Notes: a model not told the origin generated them from the sequence alone. A stretch of 64,000 bases of DNA from Candidatus Zambryskibacteria bacterium RIFCSPLOWO2_01_FULL_39_39 (GCA_001823925.1 MHWB01000004.1:22390-86389), one strand, 5' to 3'. Shown: positions 11,622 through 42,588, numbered from the stretch's first letter. Numbers and translations: made by a program.

Positions 11622-11699
11622 ACCCCCTATAATACTAAAAAAAACTCAAATATCAAATACTTTAAAAAAACCATTTTTTCTGTTATTATACTTCAGATT

Positions 11700-12518: not shown

Positions 12519-12522
12519 ATTT

Positions 12523-13794: not shown

Positions 13795-13798
13795 ATTT

Positions 13799-14521
13799 AT
13801 GCATAAAAAATTAAAAGAAGATTTAAAATACTTTGTTAGAAAATATTTCGGCTATGATTTAAGATCACTTAAGGTAAAGCTGGGAGAAGATTTTTTGGAT
13901 CAGAAGAAAATTCTGGAAAACAAACAAGTAAAAATTGTTTTCGATATCGGGGCCAATGTTGGTCAAACGACCCTGAAATATAAAAAAATGTTCCCAAAAT
14001 CTCAGATATACGGTTTTGAACCCTTTCTGGATGTTTTTAAAAAATATACAGATTTTTACAAAGGAGACAAAAGAGTATTTGCCGTAAATAAAGCGTTCTC
14101 AAACAAAAACGGAAATGCAACTTTCTTCGTCAACAATAATAGCTATACAAATTCTCTTTTACCTATTAATACTGGTTTTATGGAGGGCTTCCGAACTGTG
14201 AAAGAAATTAGCGTAGAAACTGAGACTATCGATTCATTCTGTAAAAGAAACAATGTACAATATATTGATATATTAAAACTTGATGTGCAAGGAGGAGAAC
14301 TTTTGGTTTTGGAGGGGGCGAAAGAAATGTTGACCGAAGAAGCTATCGGCCTTATTTATACTGAAGTTGAATTTGTAGAAGTTTATAAGAGTCAACCACT
14401 TTTTGGAGATATTCAAAATTTTTTGGAACAATATGGTTACAAACTATATAAAAAATACATAGTAGACAATAATGAAAATGGTGAACCGATTGCTGGAGAT
14501 GCAATCTTTTTAAAGTTATGA
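13799..14521 (+). CDS. FkbM-family methyltransferase
   Basis: VFDIGANVGQTT SAM-binding motif and the LKLDVQGGEL C-terminal motif typical of FkbM proteins. Confidence 0.7.
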   Translation: MHKKLKEDLKYFVRKYFGYDLRSLKVKLGEDFLDQKKILENKQVKIVFDIGANVGQTTLKYKKMFPKSQIYGFEPFLDVFKKYTDFYKGDKRVFAVNKAFSNKNGNATFFVNNNSYTNSLLPINTGFMEGFRTVKEISVETETIDSFCKRNNVQYIDILKLDVQGGELLVLEGAKEMLTEEAIGLIYTEVEFVEVYKSQPLFGDIQNFLEQYGYKLYKKYIVDNNENGEPIAGDAIFLKL

Positions 14522-15498
14522 TCAAAATTAAATTAAGCACCCATAACTATTCCCATTCCATCAGGGCAGAGATGTTATCTCACACTCCAAACAACTCCGG
14601 TAAATGGGGAAATTTTCAATTCTTTATAAACGAACACGTAAGCGAATGTGATTACTGGGTAGTAGTGGATTGTCTGCCAGAAAAAGAATCTGCACTGTGT
14701 CCGAAAAATAATCTTATCTTTATTACCTGCGAACCAAGCGCTATAAAAAAGTACAATCAAAAATTTCTGAGCCAGTTTTCCAAAATTATTACCAGTCAGC
14801 GCAATATAAAGCACCCCGCGGTCTATCACATGCCTTCAGGCCACGAATGGTGGCCAAAGAAAAGTTTTGACGAGTTATACGGACACGACAAAGTAGAAAA
14901 AACCAAATTGATTTCAATCGTCGCCTCCAATAAGATTTACACACCCGGACACAAGAAAAGATTGGAGTTTTGCCTTAATCTTAAAAATTATTTTGGAGAC
15001 AAGATAGATATGTTTGGTAGAGGCACTAGAGCCTTTGAGGATAAATGGGATGTGCTCGCCCCATACAAGTATTCAATTGCGATTGAAAACAGTACTGAAC
15101 CTGATTATATATCGGAAAAATTTACCGATTGTTTCGTCTGCCTAACCTTTCCATTCTACTACGGTTGTCCAAATGTCCACGACTATTATGACGAAAATTC
15201 CTATCAAACTATAGATATTGGTGATTTTAAAAAATCGTGCGATATGATAGAAAAGATTGTGGACGACAAAGATCATTACAATAGACATCTTCAGAACCTA
15301 ATCGCGACAAAAAACAAATATCTTACCCAGCGTCTTATAATGCCACTTATTGCAGATTTTATAAAAAAAGAATATAGTGCTGTTGCAGGCAGTCTTAAAG
15401 AAAGAATCACCATAAGACCCGAGAGAGAATTCCAAAAAATTATGTATGCAATTAGCGATATAAAAAAATTCTTAATAAAAATTAAGACAAAAATATGA
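14518..15498 (+). CDS. GT10-like glycosyltransferase (alpha-1,3-fucosyltransferase-like)
   Basis: YKYSIAIENSTEPDYISEKF matches the GT10 signature Y-x-F-x-L-x-FENS-x(3-4)-Y-x-TEK. It overlaps its neighbours, indicating an operon. Confidence 0.45.
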   Translation: MIKIKLSTHNYSHSIRAEMLSHTPNNSGKWGNFQFFINEHVSECDYWVVVDCLPEKESALCPKNNLIFITCEPSAIKKYNQKFLSQFSKIITSQRNIKHPAVYHMPSGHEWWPKKSFDELYGHDKVEKTKLISIVASNKIYTPGHKKRLEFCLNLKNYFGDKIDMFGRGTRAFEDKWDVLAPYKYSIAIENSTEPDYISEKFTDCFVCLTFPFYYGCPNVHDYYDENSYQTIDIGDFKKSCDMIEKIVDDKDHYNRHLQNLIATKNKYLTQRLIMPLIADFIKKEYSAVAGSLKERITIRPEREFQKIMYAISDIKKFLIKIKTKI

Positions 15499-16268
15499 AA
15501 GTGGTTATATTATGTGGCGGACTTGGAACTCGTCTAAAAGAAGAAACCGAATTTAGACCAAAACCCATGGTGTACATAGGCGACAAGCCGATTCTGTGGC
15601 ACATCATGAAAACTTACGCCCATTATGGGTTCAATGATTTTATTTTAGCACTTGGCTACAAGGGGGGTATGATTAAGGACTACTTTCATAACTACGAGCT
15701 TATGAATAGCGACATGACCATTGAATTGGGCAACCCAGAAAACAAGATTGTGCATCAAAATCACGATGAGATTGGTTGGCACATCACCCTTGCGGATACC
15801 GGCCAATATACACTTAAGGGGGCGAGACTAAAAAAACTGGAGAAATATGTGGACGGAGATGAGTTTATGATGACTTACGGTGATGGGGTTGGAGACATAA
15901 ACATTCCCGCCCTTTTGAAATTCCATAAAAGTCACGGAAAAACTGCAACAGTAACGGGAGTTATCCCAGTATCACAATATGGAAAACTATCGGTACAAAA
16001 AGACAACGTCGCTATTTTTGCCGAAAAGCCCATGTCCGATTCTTTTGTGAGTGGTGGTTTTTTTGTTTTTAATAGAGATATTTTTAAGCATCTTCGCGAT
16101 GACGATAGTTGTGATTTGGAACGCGGAACACTGGAGAAACTCTCCCAAAGAGAGCAGGTCAAAGTCTATAAACACAAAGGCTTTTGGGCTTCTATGGACA
16201 ATATAAGAGATATGGAATACCTTAATCGGCTGTGGAATGAAAAAAGAGCCAAATGGAAAATCTGGTAA
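15495..16268 (+). CDS. rfbF: Glucose-1-phosphate cytidylyltransferase
   Basis: MKVVILCGGLGTRLKEETEFRPKPMVYIGDKPILWHIM and overall length (257 aa) match RfbF/DdhA. Confidence 0.85.
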   Translation: MKVVILCGGLGTRLKEETEFRPKPMVYIGDKPILWHIMKTYAHYGFNDFILALGYKGGMIKDYFHNYELMNSDMTIELGNPENKIVHQNHDEIGWHITLADTGQYTLKGARLKKLEKYVDGDEFMMTYGDGVGDINIPALLKFHKSHGKTATVTGVIPVSQYGKLSVQKDNVAIFAEKPMSDSFVSGGFFVFNRDIFKHLRDDDSCDLERGTLEKLSQREQVKVYKHKGFWASMDNIRDMEYLNRLWNEKRAKWKIW

Positions 16269-17344
16269 AAAAATTTAAAAATAAAAAAGTTTTGATTACC
16301 GGACATACCGGTTTTAAGGGGGCATGGCTTTCAAAGATACTATTGAATTGGGGCGCTGAGGTATCTGGGATTGCCCTAGAACCTGTCGCTGGCCACAACA
16401 TGTTTGAGGCTCTCAAAATTAAAAAAGATATTAGTAATCATTTTTTAGATATCCGAGATTTTATCAAACTCAAAAAAGCGGTCGCTAAAGAAAAGCCAGA
16501 GATCGTGTTCCACCTAGCGGCCCAACCGATAGTTCGAGAGAGTTACAATAATCCTTTATATACCTTTAACTCAAATGTTATGGGTACCGCAAACCTACTT
16601 GAGGCGATACGAGAAACTAGTTCGGCAAAAAGCGTAGTTATAATCACAACCGACAAAGTTTATAAAAATAACGATTCCGGTAACCCCTTCAAAGAAGAAG
16701 ACCATCTGGGGGGTCACGATCCTTATAGTGGAAGCAAAGCGGCGGCGGAGATAGTAGTTGATTCCTATACTAAATCTTTTTTTAATCCCGCAGATTATAA
16801 AAAGAAGCACGGCACGCTTATAGCTTCGGCACGAGCCGGCAACGTTATCGGCGGCGGAGATTGGGGCACCGACCGTTTGATACCAGATTTGGTTAAGGGT
16901 ATTTTTGGTAATAAAGATGTGACCATCAGAAATCCAGAAGGGGTCAGGCCATGGCAACACGTGCTTGACGCTCTATCCGGATACCTTCTGCTTGCCGCAG
17001 AGCTTCATGGTGGTAAAAAAGAATATTGTGGCGGTTGGAACTTTGGGCCTGATGAAAAAAGTTTTTTAACGGTTAAAGAAGTGCTCGAGATGGCCTTGAA
17101 GATTTTGGGACGTGGCAGTTATATAGTTAAAAGAAATCCAAACGACCAGCATGAAGCTAAATTATTGAGATTAAATTCAGACAGAGCTAAAATGAAATTG
17201 GGTTGGCACCAAAAAATGAATACCGCCAAAACACTACAATCGACTTTTGAGTGGTATAAAAGTTTTTATAACAAAGAAGATGTTATTGCTATCACCAATA
17301 AGCAGATAAAATTATTCTTTAATAAAGGAAAAAATGAAAATTAA
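16253..17344 (+). CDS. rfbG: CDP-glucose 4,6-dehydratase
   Basis: 363-aa SDR-extended protein with VLITGHTGFKGAWL, and YxxxK within YSGSKAAAE, as in RfbG/DdhB. Confidence 0.8.
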   Translation: MENLVKKFKNKKVLITGHTGFKGAWLSKILLNWGAEVSGIALEPVAGHNMFEALKIKKDISNHFLDIRDFIKLKKAVAKEKPEIVFHLAAQPIVRESYNNPLYTFNSNVMGTANLLEAIRETSSAKSVVIITTDKVYKNNDSGNPFKEEDHLGGHDPYSGSKAAAEIVVDSYTKSFFNPADYKKKHGTLIASARAGNVIGGGDWGTDRLIPDLVKGIFGNKDVTIRNPEGVRPWQHVLDALSGYLLLAAELHGGKKEYCGGWNFGPDEKSFLTVKEVLEMALKILGRGSYIVKRNPNDQHEAKLLRLNSDRAKMKLGWHQKMNTAKTLQSTFEWYKSFYNKEDVIAITNKQIKLFFNKGKNEN

Positions 17345-17864
17345 TAAAACAAAAATTGAGGGAGTCTACACTATTGAGCTCGAATTAAGAGTTGATGAGA
17401 GAGGCTATTTTACAAGAAATTTCTGTCAGAAAGAATTGGCTGAAATGGGTATTGATTATAATATAGCCCAGATAAACCGTTCATTTACTAAAAAAGCCGG
17501 CACCATAAGAGGTATGCATTTTCAAAAGCCACCCAAAGAAGAGTCCAAAATTTTCCAGTGCCTGCAGGGAGCGATATTTTATGTAGCGATAGATTTACGC
17601 GAAAATTCAGAAACTTTTGGTAGATGGATCGGTGAAGAGTTGGGCGCAGAAAATAAAAAAATGATACTGGTACCTAAAGGATTCGGCAGTGGTTTTCAGG
17701 CACTAACCAATAATTGCGAAGTGCAGTATGCCGTCTCCGAATTTTATTCTCCGGAATACGAAAGTGGTGTGAGGTTTGATGACCCGTTTTTTGCGATCAA
17801 ATGGCCATTACCAGTAGCCTTTGTTTCGGATAAAGATAAAAATTGGCCATTGACCAAAAATTAA
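17334..17864 (+). CDS. NDP-4-keto-6-deoxyhexose 3,5-epimerase-like cupin (RmlC family)
   Basis: 176 aa with RmlC-like motifs (ERGYFTRNF, IRGMHFQ, VPKGFGSGFQ). It follows rfbF/rfbG, so it may act on a CDP-sugar. Confidence 0.65.
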   Translation: MKINKTKIEGVYTIELELRVDERGYFTRNFCQKELAEMGIDYNIAQINRSFTKKAGTIRGMHFQKPPKEESKIFQCLQGAIFYVAIDLRENSETFGRWIGEELGAENKKMILVPKGFGSGFQALTNNCEVQYAVSEFYSPEYESGVRFDDPFFAIKWPLPVAFVSDKDKNWPLTKN

Positions 17865-17869
17865 AAGTG

Positions 17870-18919
17870 ATGAGAAATACAAGAAAAAAAACAAGCCTAC
17901 CTCTTGTGAGTATTTGTATTCCAAATTATAACAATGCTCGTTATCTCAACGCCTGCATCAATAGTGCCATAAATCAAACCTATGGCAATGTGGAAATAAT
18001 TTTTGTTGATGATAATTCTTCGGATACTTCTTTAAATATTGCAAAAAAGTATGCCGGCAAAATAAAAATATTAAAAAATGAATCAAATATCGGCCAGCCC
18101 CAAAACACCAATAAATGCGTTGGATTAAGCCGAGGTAAATACATTGTGATTCTTCACAGCGATGACATGCTTTTACCGGATTTTGCCGAGAAGCTAGTGC
18201 CTTTACTTGAAAAGAATCCGAGCGTTGGCATGGCCGTTGGCGAAAGGATTCTGACCGATGAAAAAAACAAGTTAAGGAAAATTGCCCCATTTTATGATGG
18301 GGACTATCTCATACCTGGTATAAAACAAGCTAAAGTGTTCATGATGGCTTCATTTTTACCCTGCCAGGTGCTGTTGCAACGAGACATATTTTTAAAAATT
18401 GGAGGCACAGATAGCAGACATATTGTAAATCTCGACGGCTTGTTATGGTTTAAGTGCTCTCTGGAAGGAGACATAGCTTACACGCAAGAGGCAGTCTCTA
18501 TCTACCGGATACACTCCAAGCAGACAACTGCTCAATATAATCGCACCATAAACCACATGATGGAGAATTACATCACCTTGACCGAAATGTTTAGGCTTGG
18601 GAAAAAATATGCCTACCTTAGAAAATTTTTTAATGAAGCGGTGAAGAGAGTGGCGGTCATAACATTGCGCTATTGTACTGATGTTATAAGAGATAAAAAC
18701 TACGATCTCGCTAAAAAATATTTGACTCTTGCCACTGTTTTCGACTCTAAAATTATTGAGAATCATGATTATAAGGTAATAGAAAAATGCTTACGCGCTC
18801 CAGGTATAAAACGAGACCAAATGATTAAAAAGTTTATAAGTAAAGACAAACTTAGAGATAGAGGATTTAGCTATAGCCCACCTAGAGGAAGTGTTCGCAT
18901 TGACAAGAGCCTAAAATGA
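17870..18919 (+). CDS. GT2 family glycosyltransferase
   Basis: VSICIPNYNNARYLNACINSAINQTY...VDDNSSD: GT-A fold with DxD. The ORF track starts at 17843; I prefer the ATG at 17870. Confidence 0.7.
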   Translation: MRNTRKKTSLPLVSICIPNYNNARYLNACINSAINQTYGNVEIIFVDDNSSDTSLNIAKKYAGKIKILKNESNIGQPQNTNKCVGLSRGKYIVILHSDDMLLPDFAEKLVPLLEKNPSVGMAVGERILTDEKNKLRKIAPFYDGDYLIPGIKQAKVFMMASFLPCQVLLQRDIFLKIGGTDSRHIVNLDGLLWFKCSLEGDIAYTQEAVSIYRIHSKQTTAQYNRTINHMMENYITLTEMFRLGKKYAYLRKFFNEAVKRVAVITLRYCTDVIRDKNYDLAKKYLTLATVFDSKIIENHDYKVIEKCLRAPGIKRDQMIKKFISKDKLRDRGFSYSPPRGSVRIDKSLK

Positions 18920-18959: not shown

Positions 18960-20252
18960 ATGAAAACCAACTTGGTTACCGATCTGATTGGGAGCAAAAA
19001 AATCATTATCTATGGTGCTGGGAGGATAGGAAAGCAAGTTCTCCTCGCACTTCGACCTTGTGGACGCACACCAGAATTCTTCTGGGATAAGAATGCCGCC
19101 ACCATTGGCGCGTCCATCGATGATGTTAGTATATTTGAGCCAAACTTTGACTTCATTCCTCAAAACCTAAGGAACGAATACTCCGTGATCATCACAGTGG
19201 CAGCCAAAGATGTCGGACGCCGGATCGGCAACGATTTGGCGAGTCTCGACTACAACGTCATCTACGATAGAGAGACGATCAACACCTTTATCTACAAAAC
19301 ATGCGAAGTGGCTGTTGCAGATGGAACTTTCGTTTTCAACTTGGAAACTTGTCGTACGTGCCCAGTTCCAACAACCGACGGACAGGCTTCCTGCGACATC
19401 TTCAACGGATATCTAGTAAATCTAGCCGGAGGGGCAGAGAGTACTCAAACCAAAGCGGAAAAACTTATCATCCCAAGACTCGGACTCTTGATAGGCAACA
19501 AATGCAACCTGTGTTGCAATGGGTGCAACCACCTAGTTGATCTCTACAAGCCCGGCGAGGCTCAATTCTTGAAGACCTCCGACCTTCTCTACGACATCGC
19601 AAGAGTCTCGAAAGAAGCAGACCTCATTAATAAAGTGGTGGTCGTCGGAGGAGAGGCTTTCCTTCACCCAGATCTACAAGAGATTCTGAGAAGGCTTCTT
19701 GATCTGCCGAAAATAGGATTCGTTCAGATCATAACCAACGGAGCAGTCAAACCAAAAGATCCCAGCCTATTTAAGTTGTTGGGAAACGAGAGGATTATCG
19801 TCGAGATTAGTGGCTATGGTAGTGAACTCTCGGCCCGATTAAGTCAGAGCGTACAGGAATTCCAAGCCCAGCTTAGAGAATACAACGTCTCTCACCATTA
19901 TTTGGGAACACTTCAGTGGTTTGATTTTGGCAATTTCTCAAAGAGGCCTTACTCCGAAGCGGAGCACAAGCGAGTCTACGAAACATGTTGTTCCGTTTCG
20001 AACGACATCTGGGACGGAAGACTCTACAAGTGTAGTCGTAGCGCAATCGGAACACACTTAGGTCATCTTCCAGATTTCCATGGCGATTACGTCGACCTGC
20101 GACAACATTCGGGCGCGGAGTTGAGACAGAAGTTAATCCAGTTCTTTGAGAACAAAGGGCCAGAAGCGTGTCTGCACTGCAACGGGGCTTCGTCTACCTC
20201 TGTAATTGAAGCAGGTAAACAAGTCCCCAGATTTCAGATTCACCAGCAATGA
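18960..20252 (+). CDS. Radical SAM protein with N-terminal Rossmann-like domain and C-terminal Cys-rich auxiliary region
   Basis: ~50% GC. CNLCCNGC = CxxxCxxC, GGEAFLHPD and IITNG motifs. N-terminal IIIYGAGRIG glycine loop. The C-terminal Cys cluster (CCSVSND...CSRS...CLHCNG) is SPASM/twitch-like. The GGGGAG SD 4 nt upstream supports the ATG at 18960 over the TTG at 18945. Confidence 0.65.
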   Translation: MKTNLVTDLIGSKKIIIYGAGRIGKQVLLALRPCGRTPEFFWDKNAATIGASIDDVSIFEPNFDFIPQNLRNEYSVIITVAAKDVGRRIGNDLASLDYNVIYDRETINTFIYKTCEVAVADGTFVFNLETCRTCPVPTTDGQASCDIFNGYLVNLAGGAESTQTKAEKLIIPRLGLLIGNKCNLCCNGCNHLVDLYKPGEAQFLKTSDLLYDIARVSKEADLINKVVVVGGEAFLHPDLQEILRRLLDLPKIGFVQIITNGAVKPKDPSLFKLLGNERIIVEISGYGSELSARLSQSVQEFQAQLREYNVSHHYLGTLQWFDFGNFSKRPYSEAEHKRVYETCCSVSNDIWDGRLYKCSRSAIGTHLGHLPDFHGDYVDLRQHSGAELRQKLIQFFENKGPEACLHCNGASSTSVIEAGKQVPRFQIHQQ

Positions 20253-20269
20253 GTGATCTGAAACCAATC

Positions 20270-20298
20270 ACCCACCGTGTCACACTGGTGGGTTTTTT
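20270..20298 (+). terminator. Rho-independent terminator
   Basis: ACCCACC-gtgtcacact-GGTGGGT stem followed by TTTTTT, 18 nt after the stop of the first radical SAM gene. Confidence 0.55.
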
Positions 20299-20322
20299 AT
20301 TATATTAAGACTTAATTTACTG

Positions 20323-20365
20323 TTGACATCTTAATAAATTTTAAGCAGTATGGAGGAGGACTCCC
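20323..20365 (+). promoter_or_regulatory. Putative sigma70-like promoter plus GGAGGAGG Shine-Dalgarno
   Basis: TTGACA at 20323-20328, a 17-nt spacer, then a weak -10 (CAGTAT). A GGAGGAGG SD sits 8 nt before the ATG at 20369. Confidence 0.3.
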
Positions 20366-20368
20366 GTA

Positions 20369-21436
20369 ATGGGAAGTTCTTTACACAAGGAGTATCAAAT
20401 GAGATTGCCTAGATACGATATACGAGAGACAGCATTGGAGACGGTAATTCCGCTTTCCACTCCGCTTTTAATTTACGTCGACCCCTCTAGCGCCTGCAAT
20501 TTCCAGTGTGGATTCTGTCCCACTGCAGATCGAGACTTAATGAAGCAGACAAGGTTTGTTGGCTTCATGGACTTTGACCTCTACCGCAAGATCATCGACG
20601 ACTTCAGAGAGTTTGATCGACCGATCGATAAGTTGAAGCTCTACTGTGATGGCGAACCACTGCTCAACCCGCGCTTTGCGGACATGGTCCGCTATGCCAA
20701 AAAAAGCGGGCTCGTGAATCGGATCACGACTACGACCAATGCTTCCCGTCTCTCGCCTGAATTAAACCTTCGGATCGTTGAAGCGGGTCTAGATCAGATT
20801 AACATCTCGGTCTATGGTATGAACGCGGATCAGTACCGTGATTTTTCCAAAACCAAGATAGAGTTTGATTCTTTGGTAGCAAACATCCGCCACCTTTACG
20901 AACATCGAAGCCAATGTGAAATCAAGGTGAAGATCAACGGTGATGTCATTTCGCGGGAAGACGAGGTTCGGTTCTATGAAATTTTTGAACCGATCGCCGA
21001 CGGAGTAAACGTGGAGCACGTAATGTCGTGTTGGGTACAGACACCAGAGTGGAACCTTGCAGAAAATGGCCTCGCTCCCAACCCCAATACCGGAATCCAC
21101 GGTCAGTCCATTCAAGATGTCCTTGTGTGCCCGTATGTTTTCTACTCCTTTACCATTCATCCAGACGGCACGGCAAGCGCATGTTTTCTGGACTGGCAGA
21201 GAAAACTTCTGATCGGTGATGTACGGACCCAGAGCGTTAAAGAAATCTGGGATGGACCTCTCTTGCGGGAACACCAAGCTCTTATGCTCCAAGGCAAACG
21301 GAGGAGTCACCCTATCTGTGGTAGTTGTGGCCAGATGAGCCACGGTGTAGTACCCCAAGACAACATTGATCCTCACCGAGAGGTGCTTCTAGATGGGTTC
21401 GAGAAGCGACTTGTACAAATTCAACCGAGGAATTGA
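20369..21436 (+). CDS. Radical SAM / SPASM-domain protein (anSME / peptide-maturase-like)
   Basis: ~50% GC. CNFQCGFC = CxxxCxxC, GEPLLNP, and a C-terminal SPASM-type Cys array (CPYVF...DG...C...CGSCGQ). Confidence 0.75.
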   Translation: MGSSLHKEYQMRLPRYDIRETALETVIPLSTPLLIYVDPSSACNFQCGFCPTADRDLMKQTRFVGFMDFDLYRKIIDDFREFDRPIDKLKLYCDGEPLLNPRFADMVRYAKKSGLVNRITTTTNASRLSPELNLRIVEAGLDQINISVYGMNADQYRDFSKTKIEFDSLVANIRHLYEHRSQCEIKVKINGDVISREDEVRFYEIFEPIADGVNVEHVMSCWVQTPEWNLAENGLAPNPNTGIHGQSIQDVLVCPYVFYSFTIHPDGTASACFLDWQRKLLIGDVRTQSVKEIWDGPLLREHQALMLQGKRRSHPICGSCGQMSHGVVPQDNIDPHREVLLDGFEKRLVQIQPRN

Positions 21437-21456
21437 TTCTTCCGGTTGGCTATTTC

Positions 21457-21496
21457 GCGACGTATACTTCCAAGTTTACGTCGCTTTTATTTTTAT
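21457..21496 (+). terminator. Rho-independent terminator
   Basis: Perfect 8-bp stem GCGACGTA / TACGTCGC with a 12-nt loop, followed by TTTTATTTTTAT. Confidence 0.6.
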
Positions 21497-21545
21497 GGTA
21501 AGTAAGACAAGTTTTATAGGATATGCTAATATCCAATTTAATAAA

Positions 21546-22697
21546 ATGGGTAAAAAAACTAAAATTAAGCAAGCTGTGATAGTAGCTGGAGGCAAAGGCT
21601 CTCGGCTAAAATCACTTACCGACGACCGACCCAAACCGATGGTGTTAGTCAATGGACGACCTTTTTTGGAATACCTTGTCAGGATGCTCGTGGCAAATGG
21701 CCTCAAAGAAGTGTTGATTCTCGTCGGTTATAAAGGCGAGAAAATTATTGAGCATTTTGGAGACGGCTCCAAATTTGGAATCAAGATTAAATATTCAATC
21801 GGGACAATAGAGGAAAATAATGGCACTCGCTTAAAAAACGCAACTCATCTTTTGGATAAACACTTTTTATTTATGTATTGCGATATTTATTGGCCGTTAG
21901 ATTTGGAAAAATTGATCAGGCATTATGACAAGTACGATGTCTTGGGAATGATGACTCTCTATAACAACAAAGATAATCGGGGTGAATATGGTACGAGAAA
22001 CCTGGTCCAACTGACTACTTCCGGCCACATTATAAATTACGGGCCATGGCAGGATGATGTTTTGTACTCTCCCACCTTTAAGGGCATAGACTTGGGCTAT
22101 TATATCTTGAACCGAGACGTAGTGCCTTTGATGCCCAAAAAAGATTTTGAGTTTCAAGGAGGTTTGGTCAGCCAAAAACTAGCTCCAAACAAAGAACTCA
22201 TCGGTTTTGGTACCGATCATACCTATTGCACCATTACAGACATCAATTTTCTTAAAATGGCCGAGAAATTTTTGGCTCCGAAAAGAATAATATTTCTTGG
22301 GTACGATGTATTAAACGAACACTTCTCTAAAACCCTACCGGCACTCAAAATGCTTCAAGCCAATGACTATAAGATATTCGTCATGGGAAATAAACCCGAC
22401 CATACCAAATCTTATTCAAAAATAAAAAGTGAACTTAAGCGTCAAAAAATTCAAATCAAAAGATTTTATTTCTGTTCCCACCACCCAAAAGACCGGTGCG
22501 AATGCCGTTTGCCCAGAGCCGGTTTATTCTTTCAAGCAGCCGGTGATCATCATATCAATCTGACCGAATCATTTTTTATAGATTCTAATAAATGGAGTTC
22601 ATTTATCGGCGAGGAAACAGGCTGTCAAACTTTAATAATTTCTAAAAAAGATTCCCTGCTTAAATTGGTTAAAAGAATTGTTGCTCTTGACTTTTAA
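21546..22697 (+). CDS. Bifunctional sugar-phosphate nucleotidyltransferase / HAD-family (GmhB-like) phosphatase
   Basis: N-terminal AVIVAGGKGSRLKSLTDDRPKPMV (NTP-transferase G-loop). C-terminal RIIFLGYDVLNEHF...CSHHPKDRCECRLPRAGL resembles the GmhB HAD IIIA phosphatase. I prefer the ATG at 21546 because the 21393 start overlaps the upstream gene. Confidence 0.6.
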   Translation: MGKKTKIKQAVIVAGGKGSRLKSLTDDRPKPMVLVNGRPFLEYLVRMLVANGLKEVLILVGYKGEKIIEHFGDGSKFGIKIKYSIGTIEENNGTRLKNATHLLDKHFLFMYCDIYWPLDLEKLIRHYDKYDVLGMMTLYNNKDNRGEYGTRNLVQLTTSGHIINYGPWQDDVLYSPTFKGIDLGYYILNRDVVPLMPKKDFEFQGGLVSQKLAPNKELIGFGTDHTYCTITDINFLKMAEKFLAPKRIIFLGYDVLNEHFSKTLPALKMLQANDYKIFVMGNKPDHTKSYSKIKSELKRQKIQIKRFYFCSHHPKDRCECRLPRAGLFFQAAGDHHINLTESFFIDSNKWSSFIGEETGCQTLIISKKDSLLKLVKRIVALDF

Positions 22698-22738
22698 AAG
22701 TAAACAATATATGATTTCTCCTAGAAGGAGGTGCGCAA

Positions 22739-23518
22739 GTGTACACCAGCAGACAAGCAAAAGCAGCTTTGAAAAAGATTGTTTGGAAAGAAGGGAAAAT
22801 CTTCCCAATTGCAGAGGGGCCATATCGCTATCGAACTTTGGTCCACTGCAGCAAAGAAGGCCGACAAAGGACCGAGTTTGCCAACGGCGAGCGTCCATAT
22901 TTTTGTTATTTAGAGCTCGTCGCCGGCAATAGTGGTGCCATCAAGGGAGGGGTTAGTATAGTGCCGATTCTCCCCGATGGCCGACTCATTATGGTAGTGG
23001 AACAACGACCAGCTCAGTACCACCACCATCCAGCTATTAATCCCTGGATCAACGGGATAGAGACAGATTTGGGTCAATATGGGCCTTTCAGCTCTCTTGA
23101 GTTTCCAGGAGGAGCCATCGATCCCGGACAAGGACTTAAGGGAGCGTTTCTTCAGGAACTATCGGAAGAAACTGAGGTGGAGGAACAGACCGCTCTCTGC
23201 TACCGCAGAGTGCATCCCGTCCACTGCGCTGGCTCTGAAATCGTTGGGGAGCAATTCATTGCTGTGATATTTTTGTCCGGTCTCACCCATGCTTCCAAAG
23301 TGGAGACGGACGGTGGGCTAAAGGTTTTCGCCTTAAGCCCAAAAGAGGTTCAGAAAAATATCTGGAGGGGCGCCATCAGTTCCGGGCCAACATTGCATGG
23401 GTGGATGTTTTACCAAGAAGTGTTGGGGATGAGAGAAAATCTCCAACACCAAGAGCTCATGGAGCAAACCATGAGCTACGTAGAGATGGAAGAAATAAAC
23501 ATTGCCAAGCAAAAATAA
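22739..23518 (+). CDS. Nudix-like hydrolase
   Basis: ~55% GC. FPGGAIDPGQGLKGAFLQELSEETEV is a Nudix-box-like sequence. GTG start preceded by a GAAGGAGG SD. Confidence 0.5.
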   Translation: MYTSRQAKAALKKIVWKEGKIFPIAEGPYRYRTLVHCSKEGRQRTEFANGERPYFCYLELVAGNSGAIKGGVSIVPILPDGRLIMVVEQRPAQYHHHPAINPWINGIETDLGQYGPFSSLEFPGGAIDPGQGLKGAFLQELSEETEVEEQTALCYRRVHPVHCAGSEIVGEQFIAVIFLSGLTHASKVETDGGLKVFALSPKEVQKNIWRGAISSGPTLHGWMFYQEVLGMRENLQHQELMEQTMSYVEMEEINIAKQK

Positions 23519-23539
23519 GATTTCACAATCAGTCCCTCT

Positions 23540-23569
23540 GGGAGCCGCTTCGCGGCTCCCTTTTCTTTT
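23540..23569 (+). terminator. Rho-independent terminator
   Basis: GGGAGCCGC-ttc-GCGGCTCCC 9-bp stem followed by TTTTCTTTT. Confidence 0.65.
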
Positions 23570-23600
23570 GCAGAATTTCCTGATAATCTAGATTATTCAT

Positions 23601-23972
23601 ATGGAGAAGCACAAAATTCACTTACTTTTTATTTGCACAGCCAATGTTGTGCGGAGCCCGGTAGCGGCTAGCCTTTTTGAAAAATCAAACAAATATGAAG
23701 CAAGGTCAGCCGGCACATCACTTAGTCCAGACTTCCCTAACGCTACAGCCGTGAACCAAGAACTAATAGATTGGGCTGACGAGATCATTGTCATGTCGGA
23801 AAAAGAAGATCATCACGCAACTTACCTCTCCACTCATTTTGATTTGAAAGATAAAAAAATAAAAGTGCTCGATATACCCAATATTTATATCGTTGGGATA
23901 CCAGAGCATCAAGCAACTCTTCTTCAAATATTAAAACAAAAACTGGCTGGCTATCTTGACATTAATAAATAA
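23601..23972 (+). CDS. Low-molecular-weight phosphotyrosine phosphatase / ArsC-like protein
   Basis: 123 aa. LLFICTANVVRSP fits the CX5R(S) P-loop of the LMW-PTP/arsenate reductase fold. Confidence 0.5.
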   Translation: MEKHKIHLLFICTANVVRSPVAASLFEKSNKYEARSAGTSLSPDFPNATAVNQELIDWADEIIVMSEKEDHHATYLSTHFDLKDKKIKVLDIPNIYIVGIPEHQATLLQILKQKLAGYLDINK

Positions 23973-24003
23973 GTATGTATAGTACAGGGAGGAAGGAATA
24001 CCG

Positions 24004-24309
24004 ATGGAAATATTCGGAAGTTGGTCTAAAGAGATTACTTGTCCAGAGTGCGGATCACTTCTGGGCATCACTGCCGAGGACATTACTTTCAAAGTAAAAG
24101 AGCCGGCCGAACACAAAAGACGCAGTGAGCGGGGCAAGCCCATCTACTTTGTCGCCTGCCCCGAATGCCGTCGCGAAATCGTAATCCAGGAAAGTTTCAG
24201 CGGCAGCCTGCCCGAATCGGTCAAGGCGACGGCACAGGAACGGACCGGGTTTGACTCAAAAGAGTACTTCGGGCGTCCCTTGTACGCTCCGTGGGACAAT
24301 GGCACATAA
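24004..24309 (+). CDS. Zinc-ribbon hypothetical protein
   Basis: 101 aa, ~55% GC, two CPEC pairs (Cys4 zinc ribbon). Strong AGGGAGGAAGG SD. Confidence 0.4.
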   Translation: MEIFGSWSKEITCPECGSLLGITAEDITFKVKEPAEHKRRSERGKPIYFVACPECRREIVIQESFSGSLPESVKATAQERTGFDSKEYFGRPLYAPWDNGT

Positions 24310-24409: not shown

Positions 24410-25318
24410 ATGACCAAAAAAAAGATTCTAATAATTGGTAAAAATGGCCAGTTGGCGGGAGCCATTCAAGCAGAAGTAGGCTCTTTTGGGTTTGAGGTGA
24501 TAGCTTTTGATAGGCAAGAAATGGACGTGACAAACTGGCCCCAAGTCAAAAAGATATTGGACAAAATAAAACCTGATATTTTAATAAACACTTCCGCCCT
24601 GCAAGTAGTGCTCCAATGCGAAGAAAATCCGCAAAGAGCAATGGAAGTAAATTTTTTGGCAATACAAAATCTGGCCAGAGAATGTAAGGAAAGAAATATT
24701 ATTTTTGTCACCTACAGTAGCGATTATGTTTTTGATGGCGAAAAAGGATCGGCTTATGAAGAAGACGACCTCCCCAATCCCCTACAGATATACGGCCTAT
24801 CAAAATTGGCTGGAGAGTACGCCGCGCTTTGCATTTATCCAGAGAAATCTTTTGTTGTCAGGACTGCCGGTCTTTATGGCGGAGTGAAAGGCAGTCCGGA
24901 AAAAGGAAATTTTGTTTTGAACATAATGAAAGAAGCGACAGAAAAAGCTAAGGCAGGAGTAGGTATGGAGGTTAGTTCGGAGCAAATAGTCAGTCCAACT
25001 TATGCCGGCGACCTTGCCAAAGCCACTCTGGAGCTACTCTCTATGAAAGTAGATCCTGGAATATACCATCTAGTAAACGAAGGGGGCTGCAGTTGGTATG
25101 AGTTCACAAAAGAAATTTTTAAGTTAGCCAAAATTAATGTGCCATTATCTCCAATTGACAGGGGTGGCTTAAGTGCCAAAGGGGGCAATACGGCCGGTAA
25201 AGTTAGACGCCCAAAATTTTCTATCCCAAAAAATACCAGAGCCAGAGCTCTTGGTATAGTTCTCCCTTCTTGGCAAGAAGGTTTGGCATCCTATTTTAGA
25301 TTTTTAAATTCTATATGA
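24410..25318 (+). CDS. rmlD: dTDP-4-dehydrorhamnose reductase
   Basis: 302 aa. ILIIGKNGQLAG N-terminal motif and YGLSKLAGE catalytic region as in RmlD. Confidence 0.8.
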   Translation: MTKKKILIIGKNGQLAGAIQAEVGSFGFEVIAFDRQEMDVTNWPQVKKILDKIKPDILINTSALQVVLQCEENPQRAMEVNFLAIQNLARECKERNIIFVTYSSDYVFDGEKGSAYEEDDLPNPLQIYGLSKLAGEYAALCIYPEKSFVVRTAGLYGGVKGSPEKGNFVLNIMKEATEKAKAGVGMEVSSEQIVSPTYAGDLAKATLELLSMKVDPGIYHLVNEGGCSWYEFTKEIFKLAKINVPLSPIDRGGLSAKGGNTAGKVRRPKFSIPKNTRARALGIVLPSWQEGLASYFRFLNSI

Positions 25319-26520
25319 AATGCCCCATCTGCAAAACAGATAAAAGTAGACCCCTGCTCAATCTGGATTGTGGTAGTTTGGACAATTCACTGATTTATAA
25401 AACTGCAAAAATAGTCACATGTAAAAAATGCGGACATATCTATAATTCTTTGTCCCTAAAAGAAATTCTAGATTTAAAAAAATATTATGACCAAGAATCA
25501 GCTCCGACTAATTTAGGATCTCCAGACAAAGTCGGAGACAAAACAGGAAATACTGGCCCGTTTACTATGCAACGTTATAATAAATTATATACGTCAATTT
25601 CTCCTTACCTCAACACAAAAATGAAAATTTTGGACTGCGGGTGCGCAACTGGTGGTTTTTTGGATTATTTGTCAGGCAAAGGATTCAAAAAACTTAATGG
25701 ATTTGAAATAAGCAAAACCTACAGAAATCAGTCCAAAAAATGGAAAGAAAAAATAAAAATTGGTGATATGGATTTGGCAGTCCCCTTCCCTCATAAATCT
25801 TTAGATTTTTTGGTGGCAGACCAAGTAATAGAACACCTCTATAATCCACGCAAAGCCTTCAAAGAAGCCGCGAGAGTTTTAAGTGATGGAGGGTATCTTT
25901 GCGTAAGTGTTCCAGATGCTTCGCGGTACATCAAGAATTATTTTTTTGATTTCTATTGGTTTATTCTCAGGGAGCATATCGAACATTTCGATATTGAACA
26001 TTTAAAATTACTTGCCTCTTTAGAAGGTTTTGAACTTGTAAGTTTTACTAGATACGAAACCCCAATGATGACAAGCAAAATGATTTTACCTGTTTTGACT
26101 GCTGTTTTTCGCTTTTCTTCAAATACAGAGCTGAAAATAAATAAAAAACATTTTTTGTTAAAAAAAGAGATAAGTAAATATATAAAAAGAGATACAAAAA
26201 AACTAAAAAATAAAAAGAAATTATTTGAACATTTAGCAAAAAAAAGATTACCTATATATGCATGGGGAATAGGAAGAGAGTTCTTGTATATTTATGAAGC
26301 CACGGGGCTTAAGAGATGTAAGATTGCTGGACTTGTAGACCTCAATCCATACAAACAAAAGCATGTTTTGATTGGCAAAAATAAAATAGAAGATAAGTTT
26401 GTGTTAACCAAAGCAGAAAATAATTCCCAGATAATCATTAGCGCAATTGCTCACAAGAAAACAATAACAGCGGAACTGAAAAAAATGGGCTACCGAGGTA
26501 AAATTATAAATTTTAAATAA
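25315..26520 (+). CDS. NDP-hexose C-methyltransferase-like (TylCIII/EryBIII family: Zn-ribbon + SAM MTase + C-terminal domain)
   Basis: N-terminal CPIC...CKKCGH zinc ribbon, SAM motif ILDCGCATGGFLDYL, and a C-terminal ~100-aa domain resembling the C-methyltransferase C-terminal domain. Confidence 0.55.
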   Translation: MKCPICKTDKSRPLLNLDCGSLDNSLIYKTAKIVTCKKCGHIYNSLSLKEILDLKKYYDQESAPTNLGSPDKVGDKTGNTGPFTMQRYNKLYTSISPYLNTKMKILDCGCATGGFLDYLSGKGFKKLNGFEISKTYRNQSKKWKEKIKIGDMDLAVPFPHKSLDFLVADQVIEHLYNPRKAFKEAARVLSDGGYLCVSVPDASRYIKNYFFDFYWFILREHIEHFDIEHLKLLASLEGFELVSFTRYETPMMTSKMILPVLTAVFRFSSNTELKINKKHFLLKKEISKYIKRDTKKLKNKKKLFEHLAKKRLPIYAWGIGREFLYIYEATGLKRCKIAGLVDLNPYKQKHVLIGKNKIEDKFVLTKAENNSQIIISAIAHKKTITAELKKMGYRGKIINFK

Positions 26521-31559: not shown

Positions 31560-31671
31560 AACATTATCATCTAATAGAACAGAAAGTCTATTCTTGACAC
31601 ATCTTCTAAAAAAGTTAATAATATGGCCTATAATAGACTTGCTGACAAGAAAGCCAAGTGCCTATATTACT

Positions 31672-37016: not shown

Positions 37017-37024
37017 TTTTTAAT

Positions 37025-38737: not shown

Positions 38738-38775
38738 AAAAAAATATTATCACAAAATAGCCATGGAATAAAGGG

Positions 38776-41088: not shown

Positions 41089-41089
41089 T

Positions 41090-42580: not shown

Positions 42581-42588
42581 TGCAGTAA

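Follow-up and report, generated by a model that had tools for sequence, protein, structure and literature searches.

The radical SAM interval at positions 18960-21436 contains two plus-strand ORFs, rSAM1 and rSAM2, and lies in a window (the whole stretch of DNA analyzed, 64,000 nucleotides) from Candidatus Zambryskibacteria, an uncultured groundwater bacterium that belongs to the candidate phyla radiation (CPR). We think it probable that the products are twitch-type radical SAM enzymes that tailor the sugars of a cell-surface glycan, and that they are not RiPP maturases. Their most likely targets are unusual deoxy-sugars, which they would remodel, rather than peptides. Both proteins match PF04055 and carry CxxxCxxC, which places them in the radical SAM superfamily, and both fit the twitch subclass, whose marks are a C...GX4C hairpin plus CX2C, four cluster ligands and a BtrN- or SpeY-like fold. 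The original prediction had proposed non-peptidic substrates such as sugar nucleotides or a glycolipid, and this reading is now supported by four independent lines of evidence, namely glycan context, synteny, structures and gene fusions.

Both genes are embedded in a one-strand glycan locus that also encodes Wzm/Wzt, a glucose-1-P cytidylyltransferase, a CDP-glucose 4,6-dehydratase, RmlC, RmlD, six glycosyltransferases (GTs) and several methyltransferases (MTs). The features are as follows.

9426-11621, minus strand: Wzy_C/TPR ligase-like gene (Pfam)
11700-12518: Wzm (Pfam)
12523-13794: Wzt with Wzt_C (Pfam)
13799-14521: FkbM MT (Pfam)
14518-15498: GT10 (Pfam)
15495-16268, plus strand: glucose-1-P cytidylyltransferase, RfbF (TIGR02623, 327 bits against a cut-off of 300)
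16253-17344, plus strand: CDP-glucose 4,6-dehydratase, RfbG (TIGR02622, 463 bits against a cut-off of 278)
17334-17864, plus strand: RmlC-like 3,5-epimerase (TIGR01221, 168.5 bits against a cut-off of 155.75)
17843-18919, plus strand: GT2a, family-2 glycosyltransferase and obligate rSAM1 partner (Pfam GT2)
18960-20252, plus strand: rSAM1, 430-aa radical SAM enzyme (Pfam Radical_SAM, AF2 model, fold match)
20270-20303, plus strand: intrinsic-terminator-like hairpin and T-run between rSAM1 and rSAM2
20399-21436, plus strand: rSAM2, 345-aa radical SAM enzyme with a single auxiliary cluster of the twitch type (Pfam, Cys conservation, BtrN profile, folds)
21546-22697, plus strand: sugar-1-P nucleotidyltransferase-HAD fusion
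22739-23518, plus strand: NUDIX hydrolase
24410-25318, plus strand: RmlD-type 4-ketoreductase (TIGR01214, 248 bits against a cut-off of 224)
25315-26520, plus strand: MTc, three-domain methyltransferase (Pfam Methyltransf_23)
26524-27864, plus strand: GT1L, 446-aa GT4-type glycosyltransferase and constant rSAM2 partner (Pfam Glycos_transf_1)
27877-28632, plus strand: CmcI-type (rhamnosyl) O-methyltransferase (Pfam RMNT_CmcI, 279 bits)
28633-29538, plus strand: GT2b (Pfam GT2)

The four sugar-nucleotide enzymes (cytidylyltransferase, dehydratase, epimerase and reductase) all score above their NCBIfam equivalog cut-offs. Judged by its genes, the locus appears to be an ABC-transporter-dependent (Wzm/Wzt) glycan pathway that would make a rhamnose-type CDP-activated 6-deoxy-L-hexose. 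The export and assembly block (9426-15498) has the same arrangement in loci L026 and L110. The nucleotidyltransferase-HAD and NUDIX genes also follow rSAM2 in L029, L110 (64% identity) and L025, and the NUDIX gene is further present in L031, L032, L061 and L110. MTc consists of an N-terminal zinc ribbon, a class I MT and a C-terminal Rossmann-like domain homologous to the N-domain of rSAM1, and its orthologue in L025 carries PF22674. The CmcI-type O-methyltransferase and GT2b form a conserved cassette tail that recurs downstream of GT1L.

The glycan context of the two genes is kept in more than 100 loci from many phyla. Around rSAM2 there is a widespread cassette of NDP-sugar 4,6-dehydratase, RmlC-like epimerase, 4-reductase, rSAM2, methyltransferase, 447-aa GT4 and CmcI-type O-methyltransferase. 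The 6 kb upstream of rSAM2 include an RmlC-like gene in 31 of 32 loci, the 6 kb downstream include GT1L in 32 of 35, and a reductase is directly upstream in 17 of 32 related loci. In most loci a methyltransferase gene directly follows rSAM2 (MTc in 11 of 35, B12-rSAM in three). No query matched the following gene in 12 further loci; all ten ORFs tested from eight loci with such an unmatched gap carry an FkbM domain, and two of the ten also carry a PglD_N or CoA_binding-type N-domain. For rSAM1, GT2a is directly upstream in 18 of 19 informative genome loci (43-62% identity), and the two are joined in the GT2-rSAM1 fusion proteins P0050 and P0182; fusion partners in this family are GT2 and, weakly, cytidylyltransferase. 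Relatives of rSAM1 at about 25% identity also occur in glycan loci, one of them directly 3′ of a GT2 (L113). Of the closer loci, 16 contain both radical SAM genes. Among relatives of rSAM2 on long contigs, the nearest is in L110 (79% identity), a locus that matches the layout of the window over most of its length and lacks GT2a-rSAM1; rSAM1 is an accessory module.

This synteny, kept across phyla, bears directly on whether the pair might be housekeeping cofactor-maturation enzymes (MoaA, NirJ, AhbD, a tungsten-cofactor maturase or a PqqE-like protein) that reside in the locus by chance, an idea to which we give almost no credence. The best NCBIfam E-values do belong to W_rSAM_matur and MoaA, but the scores of 30-77 bits against cut-offs of 284-380 (MoaA, 30.4 and 63.4 bits against 284; W_rSAM_matur, 77 against 380) reflect the generic radical SAM core only, and all cofactor-maturation models fall far short of their cut-offs. 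The families also have a patchy phyletic spread and atypical GC content, a pattern that points to horizontal acquisition along with the glycan cassette and argues further against a housekeeping role. A cofactor-maturation identity is thus effectively refuted by the sub-cut-off scores and the conserved synteny.

The rSAM1 gene (ATG at 18960, end at 20252) encodes a protein with 100% identity to one annotated as hypothetical in Ca. Zambryskibacteria RIFCSPLOWO2_01_FULL. It comprises an N-terminal Rossmann-like domain, a Cys4 site, the radical SAM core and a C-terminal twitch domain, with the following parts.

18996-19262, plus strand: N-terminal Rossmann-like domain, GAGxxG ... FWD (weak NeuD/PglD_N matches, PDB profile, hhalign)
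19302-19394, plus strand: Cys4 site, putative third metal or Fe-S site (Cys conservation in homologues)
19503-19526, plus strand: CxxxCxxC motif, CNLCCNGC (C182/C186/C189)
19986-20180, plus strand: twitch domain (alignment to SpeY, invariant Cys, model)

The Pfam Radical_SAM model (PF04055) scores 37.3 bits on rSAM1 against a gathering score of 29.5, and the AF2 model has a pLDDT of 92. The GxGxxG loop, KKIIIYGAGRIGK, occupies residues 13-25, and the Cys4 stretch reads CEVAVADGTFVFNLETCRTCPVPTTDGQASC, with the spacing C115-X15-C131-X2-C134-X10-C145; none of the library models matches this site. At the C-terminus, the pattern CC...C...CxxC corresponds to C343, C344, C358, C404 and C407, within a region modeled as a beta-hairpin and helix. 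The twitch ligands are C343, C358, C404 and C407, and C344 is an extra, family-specific residue. All of 19 homologues (35-62% identity) keep C115/131/134/145, the cysteines of the radical SAM triad and C343/358/404/407. The Rossmann-like loop followed by a second cysteine cluster ahead of CxxxCxxC, and the C-terminal partial-SPASM or twitch region, both hold as originally described. Among 63 more distant relatives (about 25% identity), the triad and the four twitch cysteines remain invariant and three of the Cys4-site cysteines are kept in at least 90%. Given this invariance and the substantial retention in distant relatives, the cysteines of rSAM1 are not a chance occurrence. The fused Rossmann-rSAM architecture had been called unusual, and it is indeed unannotated, but it is not rare, since a Rossmann-rSAM-twitch profile matches 1,064 clusters (50% identity) at E ≤ 1e-30, many of them aligned full-length.

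Several weak similarities converge on the N-domain of rSAM1. It matches TIGR03570 (NeuD N-terminus) at E 2.3e-5, under the family cut-off, and Pfam PglD_N (PF17836) at E 0.11, and a CoA_binding match is likewise weak. Profile searches against PDB sequences return 3nkl, Rex and TrkA. By hhalign, the domain aligns with the C-terminal domain of MTc with 87% probability (E 4.5e-6). Among the 63 distant relatives, nine match NeuD at E ≤ 1e-5. Precomputed annotations place PF17836 or PF22674 on rSAM1 homologues, and these two families are found on MTs and GT2s as well. The signature itself is GxGxxG plus an acidic residue, which NAD(P) binding would fit too.

The start of rSAM2 is most likely the ATG at 20399 and not position 20369, because AAGGAG lies 7 nt upstream and an identical public protein is annotated as 345 aa. 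The protein carries the motif CNFQCGFC (C33/37/40), scores 60.5 bits with Pfam Radical_SAM, and has a Pfam SPASM match of 50 bits that spans the twitch-equivalent half. The original prediction took rSAM2 for a canonical anSME-like rSAM-SPASM protein, and the two do share a radical SAM core and, C-terminal to it, a Cys-rich domain. However, anSME acts on a peptide and binds two auxiliary clusters (7-8 Cys), whereas only four cysteines follow the core of rSAM2, in the arrangement C244-X17-C262 (with GX4C) and C307-X2-C310. CX5CX3C is absent, so that the seven-Cys full-SPASM motif CX9-15GX4C...CX2CX5CX3C...C is not formed. anSME ranks only 15th by fold, no anSME model is among the NCBIfam matches listed, and no sulfatase gene is among the annotated ORFs at 9-44 kb of the window. 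With four auxiliary cysteines only, rSAM2 is a BtrN-like twitch enzyme, and the earlier assignment has to be given up.

Conservation scored over 60 homologues reveals two additional invariant cysteines in rSAM2, C173 and C211. Identity among its relatives is 52-61%, with the two closest at 79%. The sugar pathway upstream varies by locus (6-deoxy, 3,6-dideoxy with an E1-like dehydrase, or heptose), and such good conservation of rSAM2 is unexpected if the enzyme recognizes this changing sugar. The steady sequence could reflect one constant substrate across loci.

Between the two genes, the hairpin at 20270-20293 has an 8-bp stem with 5 GC and is followed by TTTTTTATTAT; given this terminator-like element, rSAM1 and rSAM2 need not work jointly. 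A 19-aa ORF, MSDLKPITHRVTLVGFLLY (20249-20308), overlaps the hairpin, as had been noticed earlier, and neither it nor a 20-aa ORF by the pair contains cysteine. Between 11.6 and 31.6 kb of the window, all but one of the ORFs that encode 15-110 aa and at least three Cys overlap a longer gene on a different frame or strand by 60-100%, and most lie wholly inside it. The one free-standing exception is a 101-aa zinc-ribbon ORF with two CxxC motifs (24004-24309), 2.6 kb downstream of the pair, of which none of 113 related loci has a homologue. Neither here nor in those 113 loci is a small Cys-rich ORF conserved next to rSAM1 or rSAM2, in agreement with the original observation that no precursor gene is visible. 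It is therefore very improbable that the pair matures a RiPP or protein, be it encoded in trans, an option that nothing supports, or represented by the zinc-ribbon ORF. Such a role would account for that ORF, for the SPASM match on rSAM2 and for many weak matches to RiPP maturase models, but all of the latter score 15-40 bits against cut-offs of 340-850. Moreover, Pfam detects no RRE/PqqD-type domain on the pair, there is one auxiliary cluster only, and glycan genes are kept in >90% of loci.

Literature searches found no named or characterized member of either family, and no NCBIfam model reaches its cut-off on rSAM1 or rSAM2, so their chemistry is assigned by analogy with precedents at 15-21% identity. 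By that analogy, we infer that a carbinol carbon of the sugar loses a hydrogen and is then oxidized or epimerized. Twitch enzymes also catalyze deamination, decarboxylation, C-C bond formation and thioether formation, and in view of this diversity oxidation or epimerization is only the most frequent precedent.

In the mechanism we propose, rSAM2 would be the core cassette enzyme, acting after the 4-reductase and before the methyltransferase and the dedicated 447-aa GT4. As in BtrN and DesII, SAM would be reductively cleaved to a 5′-deoxyadenosyl radical, which would then abstract hydrogen at a secondary carbinol position in the deoxy-sugar. The substrate radical might become a ketone, with the electron leaving via the single auxiliary [4Fe-4S] cluster, or the invariant free C173 or C211 might re-quench it from the opposite face to give an epimer. 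The modified sugar would next be methylated and then transferred by the GT4. With its SpeY/HygY-like catalytic core, rSAM1 would perform an analogous oxidation or epimerization on the sugar handled by GT2. Its N-terminal Rossmann-like domain, apparently common to cassette methyltransferases and PglD/NeuD acetyltransferases, probably grips the nucleotide handle of the substrate, and an additional metal or Fe-S center is probably bound at the Cys4 site.

Fold class, cysteine conservation, synteny, gene fusions and the lack of a precursor gene are observed directly, whereas the nature of the substrate (NDP-sugar or lipid-linked glycan), the carbon attacked and the choice between oxidation and epimerization are inferred. 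It is possible, although we do not favor it, that the same chemistry takes place on a growing lipid-linked (undecaprenyl-PP) glycan or on the finished polymer after the GT step, and not on a nucleotide sugar, in which case the Rossmann-like domain would recognize the carrier or polymer. The radical SAM genes are tied to GTs and not to the nucleotidyltransferase (GT2a-rSAM1 adjacency and fusion; rSAM2-GT1L), rSAM2 is strongly conserved across varying upstream pathways, the C2185-like_N domain is also found on GT2s and TylF-type MTs, and SpeY reportedly acts on a glycoside rather than an NDP-sugar. Yet rSAM2 most often comes directly after the NDP-sugar 4-reductase and before the GT, the nearest named relatives of the N-domain (PglD/NeuD) work on NDP-sugars, and a Pfam search matched neither protein to a membrane-associated family.

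The methyltransferase that nearly always lies 3′ of rSAM2, and is sometimes a B12-dependent radical SAM methylase, raises the question of whether one or both enzymes might catalyze another radical sugar reaction. Such an enzyme could dehydrate a 1,2-diol or deoxygenate the sugar (AprD4- or viperin-like), build a C-C bond or a branch, or produce a radical or keto intermediate for C-methylation by the adjacent methyltransferase. MTc has a zinc-ribbon/MT/C-domain layout, which we take to recall sugar C-methyltransferases, but at a threshold as loose as E ≤ 1 it still matches neither of the C-methyltransferase domains PF08421 and PF08484. Vinelose and other CDP-linked C-methyl sugars exist, and we know of no pathway assigned to them. 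There are weak matches to the viperin and HpnH families; viperin-like enzymes, however, lack a twitch domain, and the best fold matches are dehydrogenase- or lyase-type twitch enzymes. In addition, 10 of 32 loci have an E1-type 3-dehydrase together with rSAM2, which therefore does not take the place of that enzyme. On balance, a different reaction of this kind seems unlikely.

The closest solved structures by fold are all carbohydrate-modifying twitch enzymes: SpeY for rSAM1, and BtrN, DesII and BlsE for rSAM2. SpeY (spectinomycin) and HygY (hygromycin B) are a twitch radical SAM sugar dehydrogenase and epimerase, respectively. SpeY (7wzv, ‘twitch radical SAM dehydrogenase’) is the best PDB fold match of rSAM1 in Foldseek (E 2e-13, TM 0.71 over about 270 residues), an rSAM1 profile finds it among PDB sequences at E 1.5e-12, and its TC...YRC...CRNC residues align with the four twitch cysteines at an overall identity of only about 20%. 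SpeY has about 300 aa, whereas rSAM1 adds the 110-aa Rossmann-like N-domain and the conserved Cys4 site, and SpeY has Lys at the position of C344, beside the first cluster ligand. Both belong to carbohydrate pathways, but SpeY and HygY are found in aminoglycoside clusters and rSAM1 in a surface-glycan locus with a GT2 partner.

BtrN (butirosin), the 2-deoxy-scyllo-inosamine dehydrogenase and founding twitch enzyme, is the best fold match of rSAM2 (E 6.7e-14, TM 0.75). A BtrN profile matches rSAM2 at E 1.2e-16, and the GX4C and CX2C ligands of the same single auxiliary cluster line up, although identity is 16%, rSAM2 is about 100 aa longer and the pathway differs. Unlike BtrN, rSAM2 has the extra invariant pair C173 and C211 and many invariant Arg/Lys residues, which are compatible with a phosphorylated substrate. 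DesII (desosamine) is second by fold (E 8e-13; sequence E 1e-5) and acts on TDP-4-amino-4,6-dideoxy-D-glucose, a radical SAM precedent for direct action on an NDP-6-deoxyhexose. However, it has 490 aa with a different N-terminal extension, its model TIGR04426 scores 32 bits against a cut-off of 450, and the window has no aminotransferase to supply an amino-sugar. BlsE follows at E 1.7e-11.

Outside the radical SAM core, the N-domain of rSAM1 has weak but repeated matches to the PglD/NeuD/VioB N-domain (PF17836) and to C2185-like_N (PF22674), with the scores of rSAM1 itself under the family cut-offs. In PglD/NeuD this domain joins a left-handed beta-helix acetyltransferase, whereas in rSAM1 the matching region joins the radical SAM core. 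An rSAM2 orthologue (55% identity, 95% coverage) is carried by plasmid pBHWA1 of the spirochaete Brachyspira hyodysenteriae, where it adjoins rfbF, rfbC, SDR and GT genes. This plasmid differs from the window in having seven radical SAM genes, none close to rSAM1, and a radical SAM gene where rfbG would be expected. Its radical SAM/GT/rfbC block has been linked to virulence in pigs (PMC4267127).

rSAM1 and rSAM2 are new, uncharacterised families within the twitch radical SAM enzymes that tailor carbohydrates. No NCBIfam name or curated model was found for either, and a keyword search of a limited library for radical SAM enzymes in CDP-sugar, O-antigen and capsule pathways returned no characterised member and no description of these families. 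The interval flagged in the original prediction holds two plus-strand ORFs, which together fill it, and lies within a run of genes at about 11.7-29.5 kb that are all on one strand.

Gene order of the glycan locus (window positions; + strand)
Position 1: Wzm, then Wzt with a Wzt_C domain
Position 2: FkbM methyltransferase and GT10
Position 3: glucose-1-P cytidylyltransferase, CDP-glucose 4,6-dehydratase, RmlC-like epimerase
Position 4: GT2a (17843-18919, family-2 glycosyltransferase), rSAM1 (18960-20252, radical SAM), rSAM2 (20399-21436, radical SAM)
Position 5: nucleotidyltransferase-HAD fusion, NUDIX, LMWP-like gene, zinc-ribbon ORF
Position 6: RmlD (24410-25318, 4-ketoreductase)
Position 7: MTc (25315-26520, three-domain methyltransferase), GT1L (26524-27864, 446-aa GT4), CmcI-type O-methyltransferase, GT2b (28633-29538, family-2 glycosyltransferase)

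A divergent Wzy_C/TPR ligase-like gene lies upstream of Wzm. Four sugar-nucleotide enzymes of the window score above NCBIfam equivalog cut-offs and, on the strength of these and of the gene set, the locus is predicted to make a rhamnose-type CDP-6-deoxy-L-hexose and to assemble a methylated glycan exported by the ABC transporter. A check of the window for a heptose pathway revealed no homologue of GmhA, HddA, E1 or B12-rSAM.

The features that had been listed for protein 1 are all present in rSAM1, a protein of 430 aa with 100% identity to a public hypothetical protein of Candidatus Zambryskibacteria RIFCSPLOWO2_01_FULL, a Patescibacteria/Parcubacteria lineage within the candidate phyla radiation (CPR). 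Its motifs are IIIYGAGRIG, C115-X15-C131-X2-C134-X10-C145, CNLCCNGC and a C-terminal CC...C...CxxC. The listed cysteines are invariant across 19 homologues of 35-62% identity, the closer sequences used for the conservation scan (a wider alignment of 24 sequences contained no conserved stretch). A more distant set of 63 relatives (about 25% identity) keeps the radical SAM triad and all four twitch cysteines without exception, and three mid-site cysteines nearly so. Such retention in close and distant relatives marks the conserved cysteines as functional rather than due to chance. Close relatives are scarce (59 matches among 5.8 billion sequences); a profile search (E <= 1e-30) gathered 1,064 clusters at the 50% identity level, and for many the alignment is full-length, N-domain included. 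None of the 63 distant members reached an NCBIfam cut-off. The architecture is widespread yet unnamed. When the Cys4 segment was scanned alone against the family library, it matched no family.

The AF2 model of rSAM1 (pLDDT 92) has as its closest PDB fold SpeY, a "twitch radical SAM dehydrogenase" (Foldseek, E 2e-13, TM 0.71), and the relation is also evident in the sequence profile (E 1.5e-12). Alignment to SpeY gives C343, C358, C404 and C407 as the twitch ligands, and SpeY has a lysine where rSAM1 has an additional cysteine, C344. An assignment of PDB entry 7wzv as BlsE was rejected, since TIGR04466 scored 26 bits against a cut-off of 400 and Foldseek names the entry SpeY. The N-domain of rSAM1 (GAGxxG ... 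FWD) gives weak matches to NeuD/PglB/VioB, PglD_N, CoA_binding, Rex and a WbpM-like fragment. Its kinship with the C-terminal domain of MTc is visible in profile-profile comparison only (probability 87%, E 4.5e-6), pairwise BLASTP being not significant (E 0.19). Homologues of rSAM1, MTc orthologues, and FkbM or TylF methyltransferases and GT2s of such loci have PF22674 or PF17836 among their recorded Pfam domains. Because the domain is common to radical SAM, methyltransferase, glycosyltransferase and acetyltransferase classes, it is more likely to bind a substrate handle (a nucleotide) than to serve a redox role.

rSAM2 most likely starts at the ATG at 20399, which has AAGGAG 7 nt upstream and yields 345 aa, matching the public annotation of an identical protein from the _39_39 bin of the RIFCSPLOWO2_01_FULL series. 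Between the two genes lies a terminator-like hairpin (20270-20293) with a T-run, and the 19-aa ORF said to overlap a terminator does exist, is Cys-free and overlaps this hairpin. rSAM2 matches Pfam SPASM, and its post-core cysteines are only C244, C262, C307 and C310; it also has two invariant non-cluster cysteines, C173 and C211. The auxiliary ligands align to those of BtrN (profile E 1.2e-16), and the cysteine arrangement reads as a single-cluster twitch pattern. By fold, the rSAM2 model (pLDDT 88.6) ranks BtrN first (E 6.7e-14, TM 0.75), followed by DesII and BlsE, with anSME 15th. Given this cysteine pattern and fold ranking, the original description of protein 2 as a canonical anSME-like SPASM protein is incorrect. 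A sequence search gave 1,776 matches (clusters at 90% identity), of which the best 120 of 1,776 are all at least 57% identical, and a metagenome scan found more than 549 loci encoding rSAM2. The family is tightly conserved across phyla, including CPR bacteria, methanotrophs, Nitrospira, sulfate reducers and Brachyspira hyodysenteriae.

The reported absence of a small Cys-rich ORF near the pair was borne out by a scan of 11.6-31.6 kb, in which all Cys-rich ORFs (15-110 aa, at least 3 Cys) share 60-100% of their length, mostly all of it, with a longer gene in a different frame or on the other strand, with the sole exception of the 101-aa zinc-ribbon ORF at 24004-24309. None of the 113 related loci contains a homologue of this ORF or of the neighbouring LMWP-like gene, and the ORF was rejected as a precursor peptide on that ground. 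Pfam detected no RRE/PqqD domain, and RiPP-maturase models scored 15-40 bits against cut-offs of 340-850. We consider it very probable that the substrate is a glycan or sugar, not a peptide. The window yielded no RNA genes in Rfam and tRNA scans. The LMW-phosphatase/ArsC-like ORF (123 aa) and the zinc-ribbon ORF (two CPEC motifs) occupy 23601-24309, between NUDIX and RmlD.

Related rSAM2 loci were annotated by tblastn with the window proteins, and the neighbours were then counted. Of 32 loci, 31 have an RmlC-like gene no more than 6 kb upstream of rSAM2, and 17 have a 4-reductase as the immediate upstream neighbour; GT1L follows rSAM2 within 6 kb in 32 of 35. Immediately 3' of rSAM2, 11 loci have MTc, 3 have a B12-radical-SAM methylase and a further 3 have a paralogue of rSAM2; for 12 loci, the gene in this place gave no match to any of the query proteins. 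All 10 ORFs scanned, from 8 loci with such an unmatched gap, carry an FkbM methyltransferase domain, and 2 of them also match PglD_N or CoA_binding in the N-terminal part. The sugar pathway upstream of rSAM2 varies, being plain CDP-6-deoxy in some loci, supplemented by an E1/DegT-type 3-dehydrase in others and a heptose route in L025 (GmhA, HddA and an HddC-GmhB fusion). The possibility that the rSAM enzymes replace the E1/E3 3-deoxygenation system was rejected, because an E1/DegT-type 3-dehydrase gene accompanies rSAM2 in 10 of 32 loci and such a gene co-occurs with rSAM1 in locus L004. Genes for B12-binding radical SAM proteins (class B methylase-like) often occur between rSAM2 and GT1L or just after GT1L (L025, L032, L042, L043, L050, L057, L083 and L110, among others), where they alternate with SAM-dependent methyltransferases bearing a PglD_N-like domain.

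The 24 loci recovered by a genome scan for rSAM1 are spread over very different phyla. Among 19 informative loci, 18 have GT2a as the gene directly 5' of rSAM1. Sixteen of the closer rSAM1 loci also contain rSAM2, the remainder being short contigs. Two proteins (P0050 and P0182) are GT2-rSAM1 fusions, and one rSAM1 relative has a weak cytidylyltransferase match. Relatives at 25% identity are also found in glycan loci, one directly behind a GT2. The closest rSAM2 relative on a long contig (L110, 79% identity) shares the gene order of the window over most of its length, lacks the GT2a-rSAM1, LMWP-like and zinc-ribbon genes and has an extra B12-rSAM gene. The absence of GT2a-rSAM1 despite the shared order marks GT2a-rSAM1 as an inserted accessory module.

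Base composition is uneven across 18960-24309. GC content is 47% in rSAM1, 49% in rSAM2, 49% in NUDIX and 53% in the zinc-ribbon ORF, compared with 37% for the whole window and 33-41% for the interleaved GT2a, nucleotidyltransferase-HAD, LMWP, RmlD and MTc genes; in GC content, GT2a (the obligate partner of rSAM1) resembles the host. This mosaic suggests that individual genes were acquired horizontally, separately and relatively recently. The fusion of a sugar-1-P nucleotidyltransferase to HAD-IIIA (GmhB-like) lies 3' of rSAM2 in the window, in L029 and L110 (64% identity) and in L025; GmhA and HddA accompany it in L025 and are absent from the window. Its ORF as mechanically called (21393-22697) overlaps rSAM2 at the start, a start at Met-52 (21546) is likelier, and HAD motif I looks degenerate (FLGYDVLNE for DxDGT). 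An O-antigen-ligase-like Wzy_C protein that has TPR repeats at its C-terminus occurs with Wzm/Wzt (Wzt_C) in the window (9426-13794), L026 (1-6526) and L109 (294-2492). The source, a CPR bacterium, probably lacks an outer membrane and, since the set in L026 also adjoins type IV pilin-like (N_methyl) genes, the glycan carrier may be a protein (pilin or S-layer) rather than lipid A. Within the glycan locus, at 31492-33391, a transketolase split into N- and C-terminal subunits precedes an SDR and a GT2 and may supply an unusual sugar phosphate. The minus strand carries a second glycan block (36474-44344). Besides an RmlC that scores higher than the first (235 bits) and an SDR, this block encodes a DUF2079 membrane protein, a fusion of HAD with a UbiA prenyltransferase, and one glycosyltransferase each of the GT2 and GT1 types; its HAD-UbiA pair recalls the synthesis of polyprenyl-phospho-sugar (decaprenyl-phosphoribose-type) donors.

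By analogy with known enzymes, we infer that rSAM1 and rSAM2 would each cleave SAM reductively to a 5'-deoxyadenosyl radical, which would attack a deoxy-sugar by removing hydrogen from one of its secondary carbinol carbons. Loss of an electron through the auxiliary cluster could then turn the substrate radical into a ketone, as in BtrN and SpeY and in DesII when it works as a dehydrogenase. Alternatively, a Cys thiol could return a hydrogen to the radical and so produce an epimer, with the invariant C173 and C211 of rSAM2 as candidate hydrogen donors. In HygY, the hydrogen donor was reportedly identified through a mutant that switched from epimerase to dehydrogenase. The rSAM2 product would next be methylated and transferred by GT1L, and rSAM1 would serve GT2a likewise. 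We lean towards an NDP-sugar as the substrate and regard a lipid-linked glycan as rather doubtful; whether the chemistry is oxidation or epimerisation, as against some other radical reaction, is an even call. What sits least easily with this picture is that rSAM2 is 52-61% identical (79% in the two closest relatives) across loci with differing upstream sugars; this constancy could reflect attack at a shared position (C2, C4 or C5) or a constant substrate.

The B. hyodysenteriae plasmid pBHWA1 (36 kb) carries an rSAM2 orthologue, at 55% identity, in a radical SAM/GT/rfbC block. Seven radical SAM/SPASM genes are found there in one glycan locus (L028, 7256-20818), where the slot after rfbF, expected to be that of rfbG (4,6-dehydratase), is taken by a radical SAM gene. 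The radical SAM/GT/rfbC block, part of this locus, is reported to correlate with virulence in this pig pathogen (PMC4267127).

A broader and, taken as a whole, unlikely reading would join these observations. rSAM2, with its obligatory downstream methyltransferase and dedicated GT4, would perform an unrecognised late radical step in nucleotide-sugar biosynthesis, in which a reduced 6-deoxy-L-hexose or heptose is re-activated at an otherwise inert carbon to give a sugar (for example C-branched, or an unusual epimer) beyond classical 4-keto chemistry. The step would be widely used in bacterial surface glycans, including that of the virulence-linked Brachyspira plasmid, and rSAM1 would represent a new three-cluster twitch subclass with a built-in nucleotide-binding domain, in physical complex with its GT2.

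Once the reactions are defined, thousands of proteins that O-antigen-like loci encode under the annotation "radical SAM/SPASM domain protein" could be given a function, and new rare sugars or epitopes could be revealed. Methylotuvimicrobium buryatense 5G, which carries the whole cassette in locus L004 and is genetically tractable, is a candidate cultured host. rSAM1 further adds a GT2-coupled architecture with three putative metal sites. To our knowledge, nearly all characterised radical SAM enzymes that act on carbohydrates (BtrN, DesII, SpeY, HygY, BlsE and AprD4) come from antibiotic (secondary-metabolite) pathways. Unlike the characterised twitch sugar enzymes, which belong to antibiotic pathways, rSAM1 and rSAM2 reside in primary surface-glycan pathways and are coupled to dedicated glycosyltransferases, and rSAM1 differs from them also in having a Rossmann-like domain and a Cys4 site before the core.
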